From Planctomycetota bacterium (lineage in GTDB: Bacteria; Planctomycetota; UBA8108; SXIK01): a stretch of 64,000 nt of DNA. This document shows, one piece after another, positions 2,166 through 18,703 of this stretch. Numbering within the stretch: position 1 is the stretch's first letter; each line of letters starts with the position of its first letter. Below the pieces are notes generated by a model. That model was not told where the DNA came from. It was given only the letters and a program-made list of their open reading frames with translations, and did not search any database. The stretch spans positions 8,288,001 through 8,352,000 of the forward strand of contig OZ244999.1 in assembly GCA_965223265.1 (NCBI GenBank), written 5' to 3'. Both the position numbers and the translations under genes were made by a program.

Positions 2166-2369
2166 GTCCCGCAAAGTAGCAGGCACACTCCGTGTGCCGT
2201 CCGGTCTTGTCTTCCCGTCGCCGACCCCAACGTGTAGTTGAGCGTCCCGGAAAGTAGCAGGCACACTCTGTGTGCCGTCCGGTCTTGTCTTCCCGTCGCC
2301 GACCCCAACGTGTAGTTGAGCGTCCCGGAAAGTAGCAGGCACACTCTGTGTGCCGTCCGGTCTTGTCTT
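2166..2369 (+). repeat. Tandem array of about 2.6 copies of a 78-bp unit, each containing a GTAG-type REP palindrome
   Basis: GTAGCAGGCACACTC(C/T)GTGTGCCGTCCGGTCTTGTC starts at 2176, 2254 and 2332 (period 78). GTAG is followed by the GGCACAC...GTGTGCC palindrome. Confidence 0.9.
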
Positions 2370-13300: not shown

Positions 13301-14776
13301 ATGCCGCGATCAGAAACAAAAGACCGAACGCTTTCAGGTGCTGCGCAGCACCCGAACTTCGTTTACGCCAACCGTCGTCAAATGCTCCAGAGCTTTGCCG
13401 GTGGCGTCGGTGCTCTCGCCCTCCGGGGTATGCTCTCCGATCTCGACGCTGGAGAGACGCGAGCGAACGAAGGTGCAGACCGTGCGATCGATCCGTTGGC
13501 ACCGAAGACGACGCACCGAGTGGCGCGCGCGAAGCGTGTCATTTTCTTGTGGATGACCGGTGGCGTGTCGCACGTCGAGTCGTTTGACCCGAAGCCGAAA
13601 CTTGCGCGCGACCATGGTAAGCCAGTCCCGATCGATAACTGGCAGGGACGCCTTGGTACGTTCCGACCGTTTCTGAAGGGGCCTCACTTTGGCTTTCAGC
13701 GTGGCGGAGAGAGTGGCATTCCCGTCAGTGATCTCTTTCCACATGTGCGACGCGTCGTCGACGATCTGTGTGTGATTCGTTCGATGTCGACTGATCACAC
13801 CAATCACTTTGAGAGCACACTCGGGATGCATACCGGGTCGTTCTCATTTGCCAGGCCGAGCCTTGGTGCCTGGGTGAGCTACGGGCTCGGCACCGAGAAC
13901 CGAAACTTGCCTTCGTTTGTCGTCGTCGCACCGAAGGCGCCCTACGCGGGCAACCACGCTTGGGGTGCTGATTTTCTGCCCGGTTGCCATCAGGGCACGC
14001 GGGTTGTCCCAGGCGACGTGCCGATCGCCAACATTCAGCGCCGAACGGCCTCGAGGTTGCAGCAACTCGAGCTCGGGCTGTTGGGCCAGGCCAACGCACA
14101 GCATCGGAGTGAGCGCCCTGGCGAGGCAGCGCTCGAAGCGCAGATCCGCGCCTTTGAGACCGCGTTCGGCATGCAGATCGCCGCTCCCGAGGCGTTCGAT
14201 ATCTCGCGCGAGACCGACGCGACGCTGGGGCTCTACGGACTGGAGCGCGGGCAAACGAGCGGCTACGGCTGGCAGTGTCTCGTCGGCCGGCGGCTGATCG
14301 AGCGCGGTGTTCGTTTCGTCGAGCTCGTCGACTTTGGCAGCTCCGGCGGCAACTGGGATTCCCACGGAGATATGCAAGGTCACGTGCCGAAGGCGCGCTA
14401 CGTCGATCAAGCCATCGCCGGTCTCATCGCCGACCTCAAGGCACGGGGACTCCTGGACGAAACACTTGTGGTTTGGACGACTGAGTTTGGTCGCACACCG
14501 TACAACATGGTGAAGAACCACAAGGGCCGGGAGCATCATCACCAGTGCTTCTCCTCGTGGCTCGCCGGCGGCGGCGTCAAGCCAGGCATCACGTACGGCG
14601 CCACCGACGAGTACGGCATCGATGTCGCGGAGAAGAAGGTGCACGTGCACGATTTCCACGCGACGCTCCTTCACCTCCTCGGTCTCGACCATGAGAGGTT
14701 GACCTACCGCCACGCCGGGCGCGACTTCCGTCTGACCGACGTCTATGGCAAGGTCGTCAAGGACATCCTCGCCTGA
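13301..14776 (+). CDS. Second DUF1501 family protein (Tat-type signal)
   Basis: [52 protein letters not shown]; ATG at 13301 just after the upstream stop. Confidence 0.93.
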
Positions 14777-14787
14777 CCTCGAGTTCG

Positions 14788-15102
14788 GAGACAGAAGCAG
14801 AGACAGAAGCAGAGACAGAAGCAGAGACAGAAGCAGAGACAGAAGCAGAGACAGAAGCAGAGACAGAAGCAGAGACAGAAGCAGAGACAGAAGCAGAGAC
14901 AGAAGCAGAGACAGAAGCAGAGACAGAAGCAGAGACAGAAGCAGAGACAGAAGCAGAGACAGAAGCAGAGACAGAAGCAGAGACAGAAGCAGAGACAGAA
15001 GCAGAGACAGAAGCAGAGACAGAAGCAGAGACAGAAGCAGAGACAGAAGCAGAGACAGAAGCAGAGACAGAAGCAGAGACAGAAGCAGAGACAGAAGCAG
15101 AG
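14788..15102. repeat. Perfect 12-bp tandem repeat (GAGACAGAAGCA) x about 26
   Basis: Read directly from the sequence; begins 11 nt after the DUF1501 stop. Confidence 0.97.
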
Positions 15103-15137
15103 CAGCAGAGAAGAGGTGTGCCGCCAAGGGGCGTTTG

Positions 15138-15310
15138 CGGCGGCGGTATTGTCGAGCGTAACCGAAGCAGAGCCGGCCTCAAGGGTGCCCTCGCTGCGCT
15201 CGGCGCTTCGCGCCCTTGACCCCGACTCTGCTTCCGTTGGCGGGGGTGAAACGCCGCCGCGTCGGGCGTGCGGCGAGAGTTTCACTCAACCGGTTGACCG
15301 GAGTCTTCTC
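15138..15310. other. Conserved structured non-coding leader, copy 1
   Basis: Shares CGGCGGCGGT(A/C)TTGTCGAGCGTA, a 42-nt core (15179-15220; 41/42 identical) and a GGGTG...GCCGC...GCGGC...TTCACTC hairpin with 16436-16602 (reverse strand). Long stem GAAGCAGAG...TCAAGGG / CCCTTGA...CTCTGCTTC. Confidence 0.85.
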
Positions 15311-15634
15311 ATGGGCTTTCTCGCTTTGGATCACTCTGTTGGCATCGTTCGTCAGTTGCGTCCGCTTGTCTCGCGTGTGCGTCGTCACGACTCGAAGCTT
15401 GCCGCTCAGCTGCGCGACGCGGGGTCCTCCGTGGCGCTGAATTTGGGCGAGGGCAATCGGCGCTCTGGTCGTGACCGCGGGCATCTCTGGCGTGTTGCTT
15501 CAGGCAGTGCCGAAGAGGTGCGTACGGCGCTCCGTGTTGCTGAGGCTTGGGGCTACGTCGATGCGCAGGAGACAGCTCCGGTGCTTGCGGACATCGACGA
15601 GCTGCAGGCGATGCTTTGGAAGCTGACGCGCTGA
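15311..15634 (+). CDS. Four-helix-bundle protein (23S rRNA IVP / Avd-like family), 107 aa
   Basis: MGFLALD...QLRDAGSSVALNLGEG...HLWRVASGSAEEV...AWGY matches the family signature QxxRAxxSxxxNxxEG and AxGSxxE; GGAG RBS before ATG 15311. Confidence 0.88.
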   Translation: MGFLALDHSVGIVRQLRPLVSRVRRHDSKLAAQLRDAGSSVALNLGEGNRRSGRDRGHLWRVASGSAEEVRTALRVAEAWGYVDAQETAPVLADIDELQAMLWKLTR

Positions 15635-15641
15635 GGTTGCG

Positions 15642-15685
15642 GTCTTGGGCCCGCCGTGCCTTTTTTGGCGCGGCGGGTTTGAGGC
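15642..15685 (+). terminator. GC-rich hairpin directly downstream of four-helix gene 1
   Basis: CCCGCCGTGCC-TTTTTT-GGCGCGGCGGG stem-loop, extendable with G-U pairs; only a short T run follows, so function as an intrinsic terminator is uncertain. Confidence 0.55.
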
Positions 15686-15689
15686 GGGG

Positions 15690-16056
15690 GAGAGGCAGAA
15701 CCGGAGTCAGAGACAGACCCGACAGTTGCATAAGTTTTCGCAGGAAGGGCTCAGAAACCCTTTCCCTGAGGTTCGATCGGCAGTTGAGGGACGTCGTGGC
15801 GGACCTCACGTTTGGTGCCGTGTTCCCCTCGCCCACGCACACCCACACGCAGACGTACACGCAAACTCTCACTCAATCGCAATCGCGCACGGTCTTAAGG
15901 CGCGTCTCTTTTGCAACGTTGGGGACAGAGACGGAATCAGAGACGGATGACGGATAGAGATACAGAACCAGATGACAGAGTCAGCGACAGACACAGATAC
16001 AGATGCAGAGCCAGAGACGGACTCGGATGACGGAGACAGGGCCAGATACAGAAGTC
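15690..16056. repeat. Three degenerate hexamer-periodic tracts (about 15690-15720, 15829-15891, 15921-16056)
   Basis: AGAGGC AGAACC GGAGTC AGAGAC AGACCC; ACGCAC ACCCAC ACGCAG ACGTAC ACGCAA ACTCTC ACTCAA TCGCAA; AGAGAC GGAATC AGAGAC ... AGATAC AGAACC ... AGAGTC AGCGAC AGACAC AGATAC AGATGC AGAGCC AGAGAC GGACTC. Confidence 0.8.
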
Positions 16057-16058
16057 GC

Positions 16059-16108
16059 AGGCGCCGTGAGCAGCGCCCGCTACGAAAGTAGCGGGCGCTT
16101 GGGCGCCT
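16059..16108 (-). terminator. Strong hairpin directly downstream of four-helix gene 2
   Basis: Perfect AGCGCCCGCTAC-GAAA-GTAGCGGGCGCT (16072-16099) enclosed by AGGCGCC/GGCGCCT; no U tract. Confidence 0.55.
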
Positions 16109-16111
16109 CGC

Positions 16112-16435
16112 TCAGCGCGTGAGTCCGCTGAGAAGAGCTAGGAGTCGATCGAGGGTCTGGAGAGGCACTGAGACTTCTTCGGCCTTGAGATCGCCCCAGG
16201 CCACCGAGAGCTGCAGGGCAGTCTCGACTTCCCGGGCACTGCCGCGGGCAACGCGATAGAGGTGCAGCCGATCCTTTCCAGCGCGCTCGGCACCCTCCGA
16301 GAGATTGAGCGCGACGGAAGAAGCAGCCCGCCGAATCTGCCGATGGAGATCGGGATCAAGCCTCCGAAGCCGCAGCAATGGAGCCCGCAAGTCGCGAATC
16401 AAACCGAGACTGACATCAAGAGCGATGAAGCGCAT
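16112..16435 (-). CDS. Four-helix-bundle protein (23S rRNA IVP / Avd-like family), 107 aa, paralog of 15311-15634
   Basis: MRFIALD...QIRRAASSVALNLSEG...HLYRVARGSAREV...AWGD; GGAGG RBS; gapless alignment to copy 1 gives 57/107 identities by manual count. Confidence 0.88.
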   Translation of the reverse strand: MRFIALDVSLGLIRDLRAPLLRLRRLDPDLHRQIRRAASSVALNLSEGAERAGKDRLHLYRVARGSAREVETALQLSVAWGDLKAEEVSVPLQTLDRLLALLSGLTR

Positions 16436-16602
16436 GGGAGACCTCCGCAGAACGTAGAGTGAACAGCTCCGCCGCATCCGGGCGGCGGTACTCCACCCCC
16501 CGACGCGGAGCGGAGTGGGTGTCAAGGGCGCGCAGCGCCGAGCGCAGCGAGGGCACCCTTGACGCCCGCGAGCACCGCGTACGCTCGACAAGACCGCCGC
16601 CG
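16436..16602. other. Conserved structured non-coding leader, copy 2
   Basis: Reverse-complement homolog of 15138-15310; core GTCAAGGGCGCGCAGCGCCGAGCGCAGCGAGGGCACCCTTGA at 16521-16562. Confidence 0.85.
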
Positions 16603-16616
16603 TACGGTGACCCCAA

Positions 16617-16755
16617 CCCACACGGCCTCCCACACGGCCTCCCACACGGCCTCCCACACGGCCTCCCACACGGCCTCCCACACGGCCTCCCACACGGCCT
16701 CCCACACGGCCTCCCACACGGCCTCCCACACGGCCTCCCACACGGCCTCCCACAC
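16617..16755. repeat. Perfect 12-bp tandem repeat (CCCACACGGCCT) x about 11.5
   Basis: Read directly from the sequence. Confidence 0.97.
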
Positions 16756-16781
16756 CCACGGGAACGGCCGACGCGCACGCC

Positions 16782-16817
16782 GACAAGGCCGGACGGCACA
16801 CGGCGTGTGCCTGCCAC
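16782..16817 (-). repeat. REP copy embedded between the tandem arrays
   Basis: Reverse complement GTGGCAGGCACACGCCGTGTGCCGTCCGGCCTTGTC matches the REP at 2176, including its flank. Confidence 0.85.
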
Positions 16818-16831
16818 GTTGAAGAGGCGCG

Positions 16832-16992
16832 CACCCACTCCCACACGGACTCCCCCTCCCACGCCCACGCCCACTCCCCCTCCCACGCCCCCTCCCACTC
16901 CCCCTCCCACTCCCCCTCCCACTCCCCCTCCCACTCCCCCTCCCACTCCCCCTCCCACTCCCCCTCCCACTCCCACTCCCCCTCCCACTCCC
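16832..16992. repeat. C-rich 6/12-bp tandem repeat (CCCACTCCCCCT-like; G-quadruplex-prone on the minus strand)
   Basis: ACTCCC/CCTCCC/ACGCCC hexamers; the minus strand reads (GGGAGGGGGAGT)n. Confidence 0.93.
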
Positions 16993-17114
16993 ACGCAAAC
17001 GCAAACGCAAACGCAAACGCAAACGCAAACGCAAACGCAAACGCAAACGCAAACGCAAACGCAAACGCAAACGCAAACGCAAACGCAAACGCAAACGCAA
17101 ACGCAAACGCAAAC
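16993..17114. repeat. Perfect hexamer repeat (ACGCAA) x20
   Basis: Read directly; in register with the preceding C-rich array. Confidence 0.97.
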
Positions 17115-17239
17115 AGAGTGTTTGCCGCTTTGGCACGCCGAATGACGAAACTCCAGCTATCCCGGCCTCACCACCCCGTGAAGAGACCTAGTTCGGCTCA
17201 AACACTCAAGGATCTGTGTTGCGTTCGCCTGGCTGTGGA

Positions 17240-18703
17240 CTACAGCTCCCTCAGCTTGATGTTGCGCCATCGCACTTGATAGGGGCCCGTGCTTGCTGGA
17301 ATGCTGTGCACCTGAAGCCCGATGAAGCCGGCGGCAGTCATTGAGTCTTTGACGTCGGCGACCGGAACATCGTTGATCCACGTCTTCAGCGAGTCGCCTT
17401 GGCAGACGATGCGGTAGCGGTTCCACTCGTCCTTTTTGAACGCGGCTCGAGCCGCCGCGTCGGTGCGGTCGGTGCTCAGCCAGCCGCGGCGCGCTTCGTC
17501 GTAGATGAACCCTGCTTCGCCGTTTGTCGAGATCTCGACCTGATATCCGTGGACACGAAAATCTTTGTAGCCCTTGAAGCTGTTGCTGCGGATCTGGATG
17601 CCGGAGTTGAGTTCGCTATCCACCTTGACTTCGAGCTGCAGCTCGAAGTCACCATAGTGGTTTGTTGTGCATAGAAAGGAGTTCGGGCTGCGCTCGTTTG
17701 TCGTGCCAACGATCACGCCCTCTTCTACGGCATAGAACGCAGTGCCGTTGACTTGTCGCCAACCATCAAGGTTCTCACCGTTAAAGAGCGCGACCCACCC
17801 GTCATCGTCTGCTTTTGCCGGCAGCGCACGTCTCGTCGCCGTCAGTTCCGTCGGAAAATCTTGAGGGATGTCTGTCAGCGTCACCTTGCCTGTCGCCGCC
17901 CATTCGGCGCCGCGCTGCAGCGTCACGTGGAAGCCGACGCCCGAGAGCGCAGAGGTACCGTGCCCGAGGGCCGTATGGAAGGCACGCCCCTTACCGTAGT
18001 TGATCGTCATCAGCAGCGGCTCGTGTTCTTCCGTGCCGCTGCTTTCCTTAGACGAAAACGCCGTCGCCAGGACGGTGAGGTTTTTCGCGGGGCCGCGGAG
18101 GCTGTCATAGAGCTCGTCCTTGGCGTGTTTCCAGCGCGAGGGAAGGCCAGCGATAATGGGATGGTCTGGTGCGCGCATATCGAGAACGAATTCATGCTGC
18201 TGGCCGTGTCGCCCGCCGCGTCCAGGGGATTCGTCGCGGACGAATTTGCCGTCGCGAAACCGTATGTAAGGGCCGGAGGTCTCGTCGCGTTGTCCCCAAC
18301 CGCCGAGACCAATGATTTCGTTGTACTCCGGCCACTTTGAGAACGCGTTGTTCGCGGCGTGCACGGTAACGAACCCTCCGCCACCAGCGACATAGTCAAC
18401 GAAGTCCTTTTTTGTCTCTTCCGGCCACTCGGCGCCGTTGTAGTTCGACACGACGACGTCGTACTTCTTGAATTCAGGGCGAAAGCCTTCGAGGCTTCGC
18501 TTGCGTGGGGGGCTTGTCGCCACATCGACAGTAAAACGGCCGCTATGCTCGAGAATCTTTCGAAGGATCGGCGTGGTTACTTTCCACGCGTGGTTGTTTT
18601 GACCGTCGACGATCAGCGCAGACAGCTTGTCGGCAGCCTGACCTTCGTGGCAACAGGTGAAAACGAAGAGCAGCCCAATGAGTGAGAAGATCCTCTGAGT
18701 CAT
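17240..18703 (-). CDS. Secreted ThuA-like (trehalose utilisation/GATase-fold) + DUF1080 (3-keto-disaccharide hydrolase) protein
   Basis: Signal peptide, [40 protein letters not shown]; C-terminal [10 protein letters not shown]...NSGIQIRS...GFIGLQVH...WRNIKLREL. Confidence 0.88.

Follow-up and report, generated by a model that had tools for sequence, protein, structure and literature searches.

The closest described relatives of the element reported here are the open reading frame (ORF)-bearing intervening sequences (IVSs) of 23S rRNA, as in Coxiella burnetii and Leptospira, whose protein belongs to the PF05635 family and is known as S23p or intervening-sequence protein (IVP). Available extracts of the study on Coxiella burnetii term its IVS a selfish element without a known mobility enzyme that undergoes reductive evolution, and place two to three GACAGAT repeats, whose copy number varies between strains, directly upstream of the S23p ORF (PMC4990558). 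PF05635 is a common family with structures solved since 2006, and its closest relative is Avd, which is encoded next to the reverse transcriptase (RT) of diversity-generating retroelements (DGRs); one report equates PF05635 with Avd-like proteins in the section at hand (PMC10053308). In the preprint extract consulted, Avd is a positively charged pentamer binding a structured non-coding RNA beside its gene (bioRxiv 10.1101/2023.10.23.563531), and the Coxiella study extracts likewise give a Xanthomonas homologue of the S23p family as a homopentamer (PMC4990558). The legend of a figure lists the 23S rRNA IVP among proteins tied to CRISPR adaptation modules (PMC10910872). As far as the extracts of the Coxiella study go, both the stand-alone members of the family and the rRNA IVSs are without known function or mobility mechanism (PMC4990558). 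Here we describe two convergent PF05635 genes, A and B, each preceded by a structured leader and tandem repeats, in a 64,000-nucleotide stretch of DNA from a Planctomycetota bacterium (GCA_965223265.1, contig OZ244999.1, positions 8,288,001 to 8,352,000; the whole stretch is referred to as the window). We are highly confident that the locus is a convergent A/B pair belonging to a multicopy family of intergenic cassettes. Our preferred reading, to which we give a probability of roughly 0.4, is that the cassette is a selfish element without a transposase and a relative of the ORF-bearing rRNA IVSs, that homology between arrays lets it spread and that its protein forms a ring which binds the leader, the repeats or both; the mode of spread and the binding target are the parts of this reading that we infer.

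The likeness to the ORF-bearing IVSs lies in a PF05635 protein as the sole gene and in long stem-loops, and the purine-rich upstream repeats of the Coxiella IVS, as given in the extracts, resemble the R-type repeat unit of the cassette described below (PMC4990558). Unlike the IVSs, the cassette is found outside rRNA, in about 40 copies per genome, and its genes are intact and under purifying selection; in place of complementary termini that enclose the ORF it has direct arrays on its flanks and a hairpin that lies wholly upstream of the gene. With Avd (4DWL, 8UBE) the cassette protein shares the four-helix-bundle fold. Unlike Avd with its neighbouring DGR RT, the cassette genes occur in many stand-alone copies, the repeats detected here take the form of tandem arrays or paralogous cassettes, and the only RTs of the genome are those of group II introns. 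The literature search, which did not extend to supplementary tables, returned no description of stand-alone repeat-flanked PF05635 cassettes. The initial annotation of the locus, made from the sequence alone, had described two convergent modules, each composed of an array, a leader, a gene for 107 amino acids, a hairpin and a degenerate repeat tract, and every one of these parts was recovered (Table 1). The two proteins are 53% identical; in an alignment of the two leaders the core is far better kept than the coding sequence, and the upstream 150-200 nt can be aligned.

The genome that holds the window (G000) is a single 9.18-Mb contig without N and with a GC content of 60.8%. A tblastn search of it identifies 41 loci, which comprise 36 full-length intact genes (17 of clade A and 19 of clade B) and five fragments, and the Pfam model PF05635 yields 39 matches, 36 of them above its cut-off. 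Identity within either clade is 80-100%, and seven convergent A/B pairs are present. Over its whole 1.8 kb, the composite of the window shares 95.7% identity with positions 7189138-7190923 of the genome and 91.7% with positions 9141161-9142969, and the similarity between such loci ends at the outer edges of the arrays. The cassettes sit between protein-coding genes, singly or as convergent pairs, and are dispersed over the genome; 14 of 29 clusters lie between convergent genes, as against 22% of all adjacent gene pairs by crude gene calls, and the single 23S rRNA gene (2007925-2010917) holds none of the 41 loci. Comparison of paralogs gives ratios of non-synonymous to synonymous substitutions (dN/dS) of 0.14 for A and 0.13 for B, with dS reaching about 0.6, which places the proteins under purifying selection and speaks against a young family. 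The view of the initial annotation that this is an old, selected unit, and neither a recent duplication nor a set of random microsatellites, is upheld by the purifying selection together with a covarying leader and recurrence in other families and a second phylum (see below), and the term ‘non-autonomous’ fits a cassette that encodes neither recombinase nor polymerase and of which near-identical copies are dispersed. That the perfect arrays are misassembled low-complexity sequence could be suspected from the frequent position of the genes at contig ends in draft metagenome-assembled genomes (MAGs); the composite with its junctions recurs, however, at seven pair loci of a single-contig assembly without N, and again in independent assemblies including contigs of ~1-2 Mb, which brings the probability of an artefact close to nil.

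Both proteins score well above the cut-offs of PF05635 (53.8 bits for A and 51.0 bits for B, cut-off 33.8 bits) and TIGR02436 (56.6 and 52.1 bits, cut-off 24 bits). An AlphaFold2 model of protein A based on 20 homologues consists of four helices with a predicted local distance difference test (pLDDT) score of 97.3. Its top matches in Foldseek are the S23p-family structures 2GSC and 2RLD with template modelling (TM) scores of 0.86-0.89, followed by the DGR Avd structures 4DWL and 8UBE with a TM score of about 0.8 and 11-12% identity. The profile scores and the structural matches therefore confirm the family assignment and the more distant structural relationship to Avd, both of which had been proposed from the sequence. 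The solved members of the family form homopentameric rings. By analogy with Avd, the protein may form a ring that binds the leader and/or the repeats; the invariant loop of the former and the 4+2-nt periodicity of the latter both look like candidate binding sites for an oligomeric ring.

Tandem arrays, counted if they have at least three copies, a period of up to 36 and a position within 600 nt of the gene, are found upstream of 27 and downstream of 17 of the 36 intact genes, compared to 46 of 2000 random 600-nt windows (2.3%); the initial annotation had proposed to seek such an enrichment with Tandem Repeats Finder (TRF). Between positions -450 and -150 relative to the gene, 40-46% of the sequence is array, and just past the gene 17-24%, over a crude non-coding baseline of 1.3%. 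Genome-wide, 243 arrays reach a TRF score of at least 100, and 47 of them lie within 1.2 kb of the 41 loci, an area that makes up 1.05% of the genome. The repeats fall into two types. The R-type unit is G-A-N-N-C-R, that is a CRGA core followed by a 2-nt spacer, and in 85 arrays the consensus is held by 98% at G1 and 94% at A2, the two positions used for selection, and by 76% at C5 and 84% at R6; the Y-type units are rich in C and A (CGCCCA, ACGCAA and similar). Repeats of this kind were also considered as CsrA sponges or TRAP-like sites, and this was rejected given that the 12-mer of the young A copies has no GGA, which leaves these systems as no more than an analogy for periodic binding.

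The six most recent A copies are informative as to how arrays and cassettes are connected. All six are preceded by the same 12-mer, GAGACAGAAGCA, with an identical junction between array and leader; their outer flanks are unrelated, and the copy at 8978541 has barely one unit. The shared junction, the unrelated outer flanks and the near-arrayless copy argue that the seed belongs to the cassette and that the arrays expand in place. A solo array of the same 12-mer exists, and in general the outer edges of arrays hold older variants and the inner parts are homogeneous. The earlier statement that repeat units are unrelated between modules is consequently valid for A versus B, and does not extend to copies of the same module, which have the unit and the array-leader junction in common. 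The 7-mers shared by the two flanks of a cassette are in direct rather than inverted orientation in 32 of 36 cases, with the reverse in two and ties in two, and neither a common target sequence nor a target duplication was seen in the outer flanks. Arrays also form modules without a gene, in which an R array is followed by a co-oriented Y array in 16 cases, by an anti-oriented one in none, and never preceded by one. Such bipartite modules, consisting of a G-rich start, an R array (GANNCR) and a Y array (CGCCCA/ACGCAA), are widespread in the genome (examples in Table 1) and show a strong polarity relative to replication; the one at 8954295-8954641 has a truncated leader A behind it.

The leader, some 150 nt long, was analysed in an alignment of 30 sequences (15 A, 10 B and 5 from G007, a relative from another family of the same order), from which five insertion-interrupted B copies, one internally deleted A copy and five other copies were left out. 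RNAalifold predicts 31 base pairs, 13 of them with compensatory changes. In the predicted structure 96.6% of cells pair, compared to 37-55% if the partners are slid by 1-3 columns, and the covariation score is 0.302 versus 0.127 in shuffled alignments, none of 500 of which reach this value. No variation occurs in the apical loop. The conserved U.G pairs and an exchange of A-U for G-U are workable on the sense strand of the gene only, and the fold therefore belongs to RNA of mRNA sense or to that strand of the DNA; the leader may act as RNA or as single-stranded DNA. Its CCGCCGC segment is able to pair with an upstream or a downstream GCGGCGG, an alternative that could constitute a switch. In the covariance-model search suggested by the initial annotation our model, R1, for which E-values are rough, finds 41 leaders in the genome, of which 37 adjoin IVP genes and four are solo or weak. 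Among the 21 genomes of the order R1 detects leaders in G000 and G007 only, with 14 in the latter, and Rfam 15 has no match to the leader in window positions 14000-18000 at E up to 1. The A copy at 5176239 has an intact gene and has lost the central leader hairpin through an internal deletion, and those at 7190071, 7738813 and 8370826 have 12-13 nt inserted within the 3′ strand of stem P4; such natural variants could show whether expression needs the hairpin.

The distribution of the cassette among other genomes couples gene and arrays. Searched against 41 relatives at E up to 1e-5, protein A has 41 matches in G000, 15 in G007, 5 in G017, 3 in G014 and one each in G005 and G016. Of these relatives, most of which are incomplete MAGs, three have the pattern (GAGACA)4 with up to three mismatches, namely G000 (351 matches), G007 (83) and G017 (137), which are the three genomes with most IVP matches and represent three different families. 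Members of G000's own family have neither the IVP nor the pattern; one of them, G001, is a single contig of 7.87 Mb without IVP, and in a sample of 20 x 20 kb it has two arrays with a score of at least 100, neither of them a 6/12-bp microsatellite, versus 21 in G000 sampled alike. The proteins of G007 are 62-68% identical to those of G000. All five G007 loci for which 400 nt upstream are available consist of a Y-like array, a GAGACA-type array, a homologous leader with compensatory changes, the gene, a hairpin and repeats; five other loci are cut by contig ends. In the distant copies of G005, G014 and G017 other long hairpins precede the start codon and other arrays are present.

Beyond the order, protein A has matches at E up to 1e-10 in eight of 401 genomes sampled evenly across the phylum, up to 12 candidates having been scored per genome. 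For most PF05635 genes of G303, G345, G141 and G359 the flanking arrays are of other kinds, with periods of 6, 7 or 13 nt. At least ten matches to the (GAGACA)4 pattern occur in G000 and G214 only. A MAG of the Sandaracinaceae (Myxococcota) with megabase contigs carries copies 46-49% identical to protein A in the order (CGGATT/CGGACA)n, a nested hairpin of ~170 nt, the gene, a hairpin and (CGGACA/CGGATT)n; these units fit G-A-N-N-C-R, and the flanking arrays are co-directional in three of three loci. Arrays were found in 58 of 95 flanks from 10 other genomes versus 7 of 32 control windows 900-1500 nt away, and in 13 of 14 Sandaracinaceae flanks versus 2 of 14 controls, some control windows being near a second gene copy. 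The Sandaracinaceae loci L162-L166 display a further trait: the post-gene hairpin, GGAAAAAGGGGAACGTCCCCTTTTTC, is itself tandemly repeated with periods of 34-46 nt near some cassettes, a parallel to the combination of a palindrome and hexamers in the planctomycete that is described below.

These data can be confronted with a simple alternative, according to which the genes are an ordinary family of cellular paralogs encoding host proteins that bind nucleic acids, for instance as RNA chaperones or in the nucleoid, the leader regulates in cis as a 5′ untranslated region and maybe as an autoregulatory site for protein binding, and the arrays are a separate genome-wide microsatellite phenomenon in long dispensable spacers in which these genes happen to be located. 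The intactness of all 36 copies and their dN/dS of 0.13-0.14 are what such a family would show, the G.U pairs specific to the sense strand fit an RNA leader, the CCGCCGC segment pairs upstream or downstream as in regulatory switches, and 196 of the 243 strong arrays are not near IVP genes. The alternative has difficulties, on the other hand, with copies that are 95-100% identical including their non-coding flanks and yet dispersed over 9 Mb, with the identical array-leader junction and a 12-mer that travels with the unit, with an array peak located exactly at the cassette edges at ~30-fold over background, with the joint presence or absence of gene and arrays among relatives and with the preference of the cassettes for convergent intergenic sites, and we consider it unlikely.

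We favour instead a selfish element that sits in co-directional microsatellite arrays and would spread by homology between them. Gene conversion may be the route, or else excision followed by re-integration across the direct repeats, and the replication fork is the probable site: with direct repeats on both sides, RecA-type recombination could remove the unit, convert it or place it into any array of similar sequence. The gene-less R-to-Y arrays would represent landing pads or footprints, and slippage from a seed located at the cassette's 5′ edge would lengthen the arrays where they stand. The Avd-like ring protein is envisaged to bind the leader hairpin and/or the periodic CRGA repeats, either in order to control its own expression or to promote repeat and recombination dynamics. 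RecA-type exchange at direct repeats would explain why the inner junction is constant and the outer edge variable, why no target duplication is seen, why many arrays have no gene and why genomes have arrays and genes either together or not at all; an orientation relative to replication would be kept because the arrays themselves are polarised.

Such an orientation is indeed apparent. The leading strand carries the purine-rich sequence at 55 of 68 R arrays and the C/A-rich sequence at 73 of 88 Y arrays. Sixteen of the 17 A genes run with replication and 15 of the 19 B genes run against it; for long ORFs overall, co-orientation amounts to 50.8%. Such polarity suggests a step that involves single strands or is linked to the fork; it may equally reflect counter-selection of the quadruplex-prone, G-rich complement of Y arrays where it would serve as lagging-strand template. 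Several points weigh against the array-borne selfish element. The origin (~7.95 Mb) and terminus (~3.52 Mb) to which the polarity refers were placed by cumulative GC skew alone, with crude gene calls, and solitary B genes show no polarity. Purifying selection and 36 intact copies out of 36 are unusual for a purely selfish, trans-complemented family and fit a host function. Neither paralogous copies nor related genomes count as independent events, and from the sequences we infer mobility by copy similarity alone. The 196 of 243 strong arrays that are away from IVP genes imply that arrays have no need of the gene in cis, and G214, a MAG in 970 contigs, has 27 R-type matches and one sub-threshold PF05635 match at a contig end. 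Finally, of the metagenomic copies of the leader hairpin (see below) with at least 520 nt of room, only 2 of 62 have an IVP ORF downstream; a core hairpin without gene or arrays is therefore a separable module.

G000 is a natural experiment, with two gene types in 36 intact copies, a hairpin that covaries and is absent from Rfam, travelling arrays and a strong replication polarity, by which array-guided spread and the binding of the protein to the hairpin or the CRGA repeats become testable hypotheses.

The initial annotation had envisaged a repeat-writing module assisted by an enzyme in trans. In this scheme the IVP ring and the leader RNA would recruit a polymerase or RT that reiteratively copies a short template into hexamer arrays. 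It draws on the structural relationship to Avd, which is required by the DGR RT and binds structured RNA, on the genome-wide co-occurrence of long perfect arrays (up to 26 x 12 nt) with cassettes and their lack in the sister genome G001, and on the replication-strand polarity, which suggests a single-strand intermediate. A possible template is hinted at by 9 nt that the array unit of the young A copies has in common with the 5′ strand of leader stem P2; no such similarity was seen in G007. No RT is encoded in the window, and the matches to RVT_1 in G000 amount to four identical group II intron RTs (RVT_1+GIIM). RVT_1 was found in three of five IVP-rich genomes (G303, G345 and G141) and not found in G007 and G017 (89% and 80% complete), which are rich in both cassettes and arrays; absence from incomplete MAGs is no proof. 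The drift of array units and their differences between loci are what slippage would produce, and the older variants at the outer edges around homogeneous inner parts also speak against a writing scheme. Altogether we hold this scheme to be improbable.

The fate of an HUH enzyme as the helper is similar. Y1_Tnp was not found in three of four IVP-rich genomes (G007, G017 and G303) and was found in the IVP-less G001; in G000 there is one weak match. Since neither enzyme class tracks the cassettes, the proposal of an RT or HUH enzyme acting in trans was discarded for want of co-occurrence. The four group II intron RT copies (1895554, 3424405, 3516453 and 5913461) are not near any cassette, and their identity suggests an active intron. 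A bolder combination of these ideas, in which the IVP ring, the hairpin and the CRGA-NN repeats are a fork-coupled single-strand system that writes or expands arrays and moves its own gene without a transposase, appears doubtful to us at present. If true, it would amount to a new class of mobile element, and would explain the ORF-bearing rRNA IVSs, the stand-alone four-helix-bundle genes of many phyla and the origin of abundant hexamer and heptamer microsatellites in bacteria.

The leader hairpin has a wider distribution than the gene. An exact search of metagenome contigs with a 21-nt loop pattern yielded 116 stretches, and the counts given for metagenomic hairpins refer to 80 loci among these. 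Arrays are rare in their vicinity: five of 68 upstream and seven of 55 downstream flanks have one, for the most part a weak one. R1 produces 32 matches of at least 45 bits in 30 of the 80 loci, and many of these are confined to the central hairpin (model positions 36-111) with a different outer stem. Loci L170-L249 contain a stand-alone nested hairpin of ~80-150 nt with the IVP-leader loop and the outer stem CCATCGCC/GGCGATGG. For 14 metagenomic hairpin loci Rfam matched group II intron models alone. A scan of 20 flanking ORFs identified three directly adjacent transposases of the IS110 family, one TrwC relaxase and one PIN protein; a group II intron lies beside the hairpin at one locus, and toxin-antitoxin genes are also among the neighbours. 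In G000 itself, a 2.63-kb element encoding a large serine recombinase of 702 amino acids (Resolvase, Recombinase and Zn ribbon domains) is present in six copies that are 99.9% identical, and all six interrupt leader B at one identical position immediately 5′ of its conserved hairpin, at loci other than that of the window. The insertions and neighbours involving serine recombinases, IS110-family elements and group II introns identify the hairpin as a recognised DNA or RNA module that is targeted by several site-specific elements, and as a widespread stand-alone target that this locus has brought to light. The idea that it is the bridge RNA of IS110 elements was rejected, most copies having no IS110 gene nearby.

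Two kinds of palindromic site offer themselves for comparison. Repetitive extragenic palindromes (REPs) and REPINs are dispersed intergenic palindromes with a preference for the 3′ ends of genes that are targets of site-specific elements and are associated with REP-associated tyrosine transposases (RAYTs, of the Y1 HUH type). Integron attC sites, in cassettes arranged in tandem beside an IntI integrase, are imperfect palindromes downstream of an ORF that fold as one strand and are targeted by IS110-family elements and group II introns. The cassette resembles the former in being connected with a dispersed intergenic palindrome used as a target, and a single-strand, fork-linked biology would fit its polarity; unlike REPs, the leader hairpin is of a different sequence family, carries a protein gene and does not co-occur with Y1_Tnp in other genomes. 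Like an integron cassette it joins a small, promoter-poor ORF to an imperfect palindrome that folds as one strand, and unlike the tandem cassettes of integrons it is dispersed singly or in convergent pairs. An identity of the hairpin with attC was dismissed, the loop being invariant, the stems covarying and the hairpin lying upstream of the ORF.

A site-specific recombination cassette is a further alternative: the hairpin would be a site of the REP, attC or att type, a recombinase from elsewhere would move hairpin and gene together, and the arrays would be secondary. The single leader B position hit by six of six serine-recombinase elements speaks for this, as do the metagenomic hairpins adjoining IS110-family transposase genes (three loci) and a group II intron (one locus) and the two leaders of the A/B pair, which form inverted ends of ~110 nt. 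Yet the elements in question interrupt the hairpin and carry no IVP gene, Y1_Tnp does not co-occur, the cassettes are dispersed singly rather than in integron-like arrays, the outer flanks lack a common target sequence or duplication, and covarying stems with an invariant loop are the opposite of an attC site. We regard this possibility as decidedly improbable, and retain spread through array homology as the preferred reading.

The genome has a REP family of its own, unrelated to the leader, composed of a GTAG motif and the hairpin GGCACAC..GTGTGCC in 237 copies that are often tandem with Y-type hexamers (59-nt unit x19). Copies are located at window positions 2166-2369, and the weak Y1_Tnp match of the genome is a RAYT-like gene directly beside a 59-nt x7.6 array of this family (G000:C1:4205000-4208000).

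The features of the locus are compiled in Table 1. It is bordered by a DUF1501 gene on one side, with the first array beginning 11 nt past its stop codon, and by a convergent ThuA/3-keto-disaccharide-hydrolase gene on the other. The purine-rich strand of the array at 14788-15102 is the sense strand of gene A, and the degenerate tract at 15681-15725 has the same direction; the array at 16617-16755 is G-rich on the sense strand of gene B. The R1 matches to the leaders are at genome positions 8303126-8303279 (A, 156 bits) and 8304463-8304614 (B, 139 bits). The nested hairpin of leader A is followed on its 3′ side by a small CCGCCGC/GCGGCGG hairpin and then the ribosome-binding site, and sequence conservation among A copies stops ~60 nt past the stop codon. 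Of the two outermost Y-type arrays, the CCCACTCCCCCT array (16834-16994) has 88% matches and the ACGCAA array (16993-17114) 100% according to TRF.

Table 1. Coordinates of the features discussed. Positions are those of the window, except where G000 denotes genome coordinates; TRF, Tandem Repeats Finder.
Feature	Position	Strand	Basis
R-type array, 12-mer GAGACAGAAGCA x26.2, 100% matches	14788..15102	+	TRF
Leader A, nested hairpin P1-P5 with invariant apical loop	15126..15279	+	covariance model R1
Gene A, 107-aa four-helix-bundle protein, PF05635/TIGR02436, clade A	15311..15634	+	
GC-rich hairpin, 11-bp stem, T6 loop, then TTT; 16 nt past gene A stop	15650..15677	+	sequence reading
Degenerate R-type hexamer tract directly 3′ of gene A hairpin	15681..15725	+	sequence reading
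Degenerate Y-type (CACGCA-like) tract, spacer between genes A and B	15826..15890	+	TRF 15834-15863 and sequence reading
Degenerate R-type tract (GAGACG/GATACA-like), downstream of gene B	15920..16049	+	TRF 15953-16009 and sequence reading
GC-rich hairpin after gene B stop, 12-bp stem and tetraloop	16072..16099	-	sequence reading
Gene B, 107-aa four-helix-bundle protein, PF05635/TIGR02436, clade B	16112..16435	-	
Leader B, homologous to leader A	16463..16614	-	R1 match and alignment
Array, 12-mer CCCACACGGCCT x11.6, 100%	16617..16755	+	TRF
Degenerate copy of the genome's REP hairpin (GGCACAC..GTGTGCC)	16786..16815	.	regex match at 16795
Y-type arrays, CCCACTCCCCCT x13.4 then ACGCAA x20.3	16834..17114	+	TRF
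Serine-recombinase element, example	G000:C1:7186300-7189300, and 5 further G000 loci		
Gene-less R-to-Y modules, examples	G000 467572-467877, 544016-544366, 4010016-4010390, 8678847-8679098		

A scan for sigma-70 promoters gave no site at the locus, and the sole terminator-like match is away from the gene ends. Neither the PADLOC defence models nor a tblastn search of a plasmid collection with protein A produced a match. A coding role of the arrays was also considered, since one frame of the R unit translates as (D/E)(S/T/A/P). The notion was abandoned because a start is absent, a stop is met in the leader, and the third codon position is A or G in 84% of units and C in 12%, in a genome of 61% GC. 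Four sequencing runs, all from one study and with no RNA run listed, hold the stretch as contigs.

In the draft MAGs G007, G017, G345, G359 and G141 many PF05635 genes are a few hundred bases from a contig end, often at the start of an array. The cassettes are thus a recurrent cause of breaks in MAG assemblies, in which they are probably under-counted, and the case links this protein family to the bacterial microsatellite arrays at which such assemblies break.

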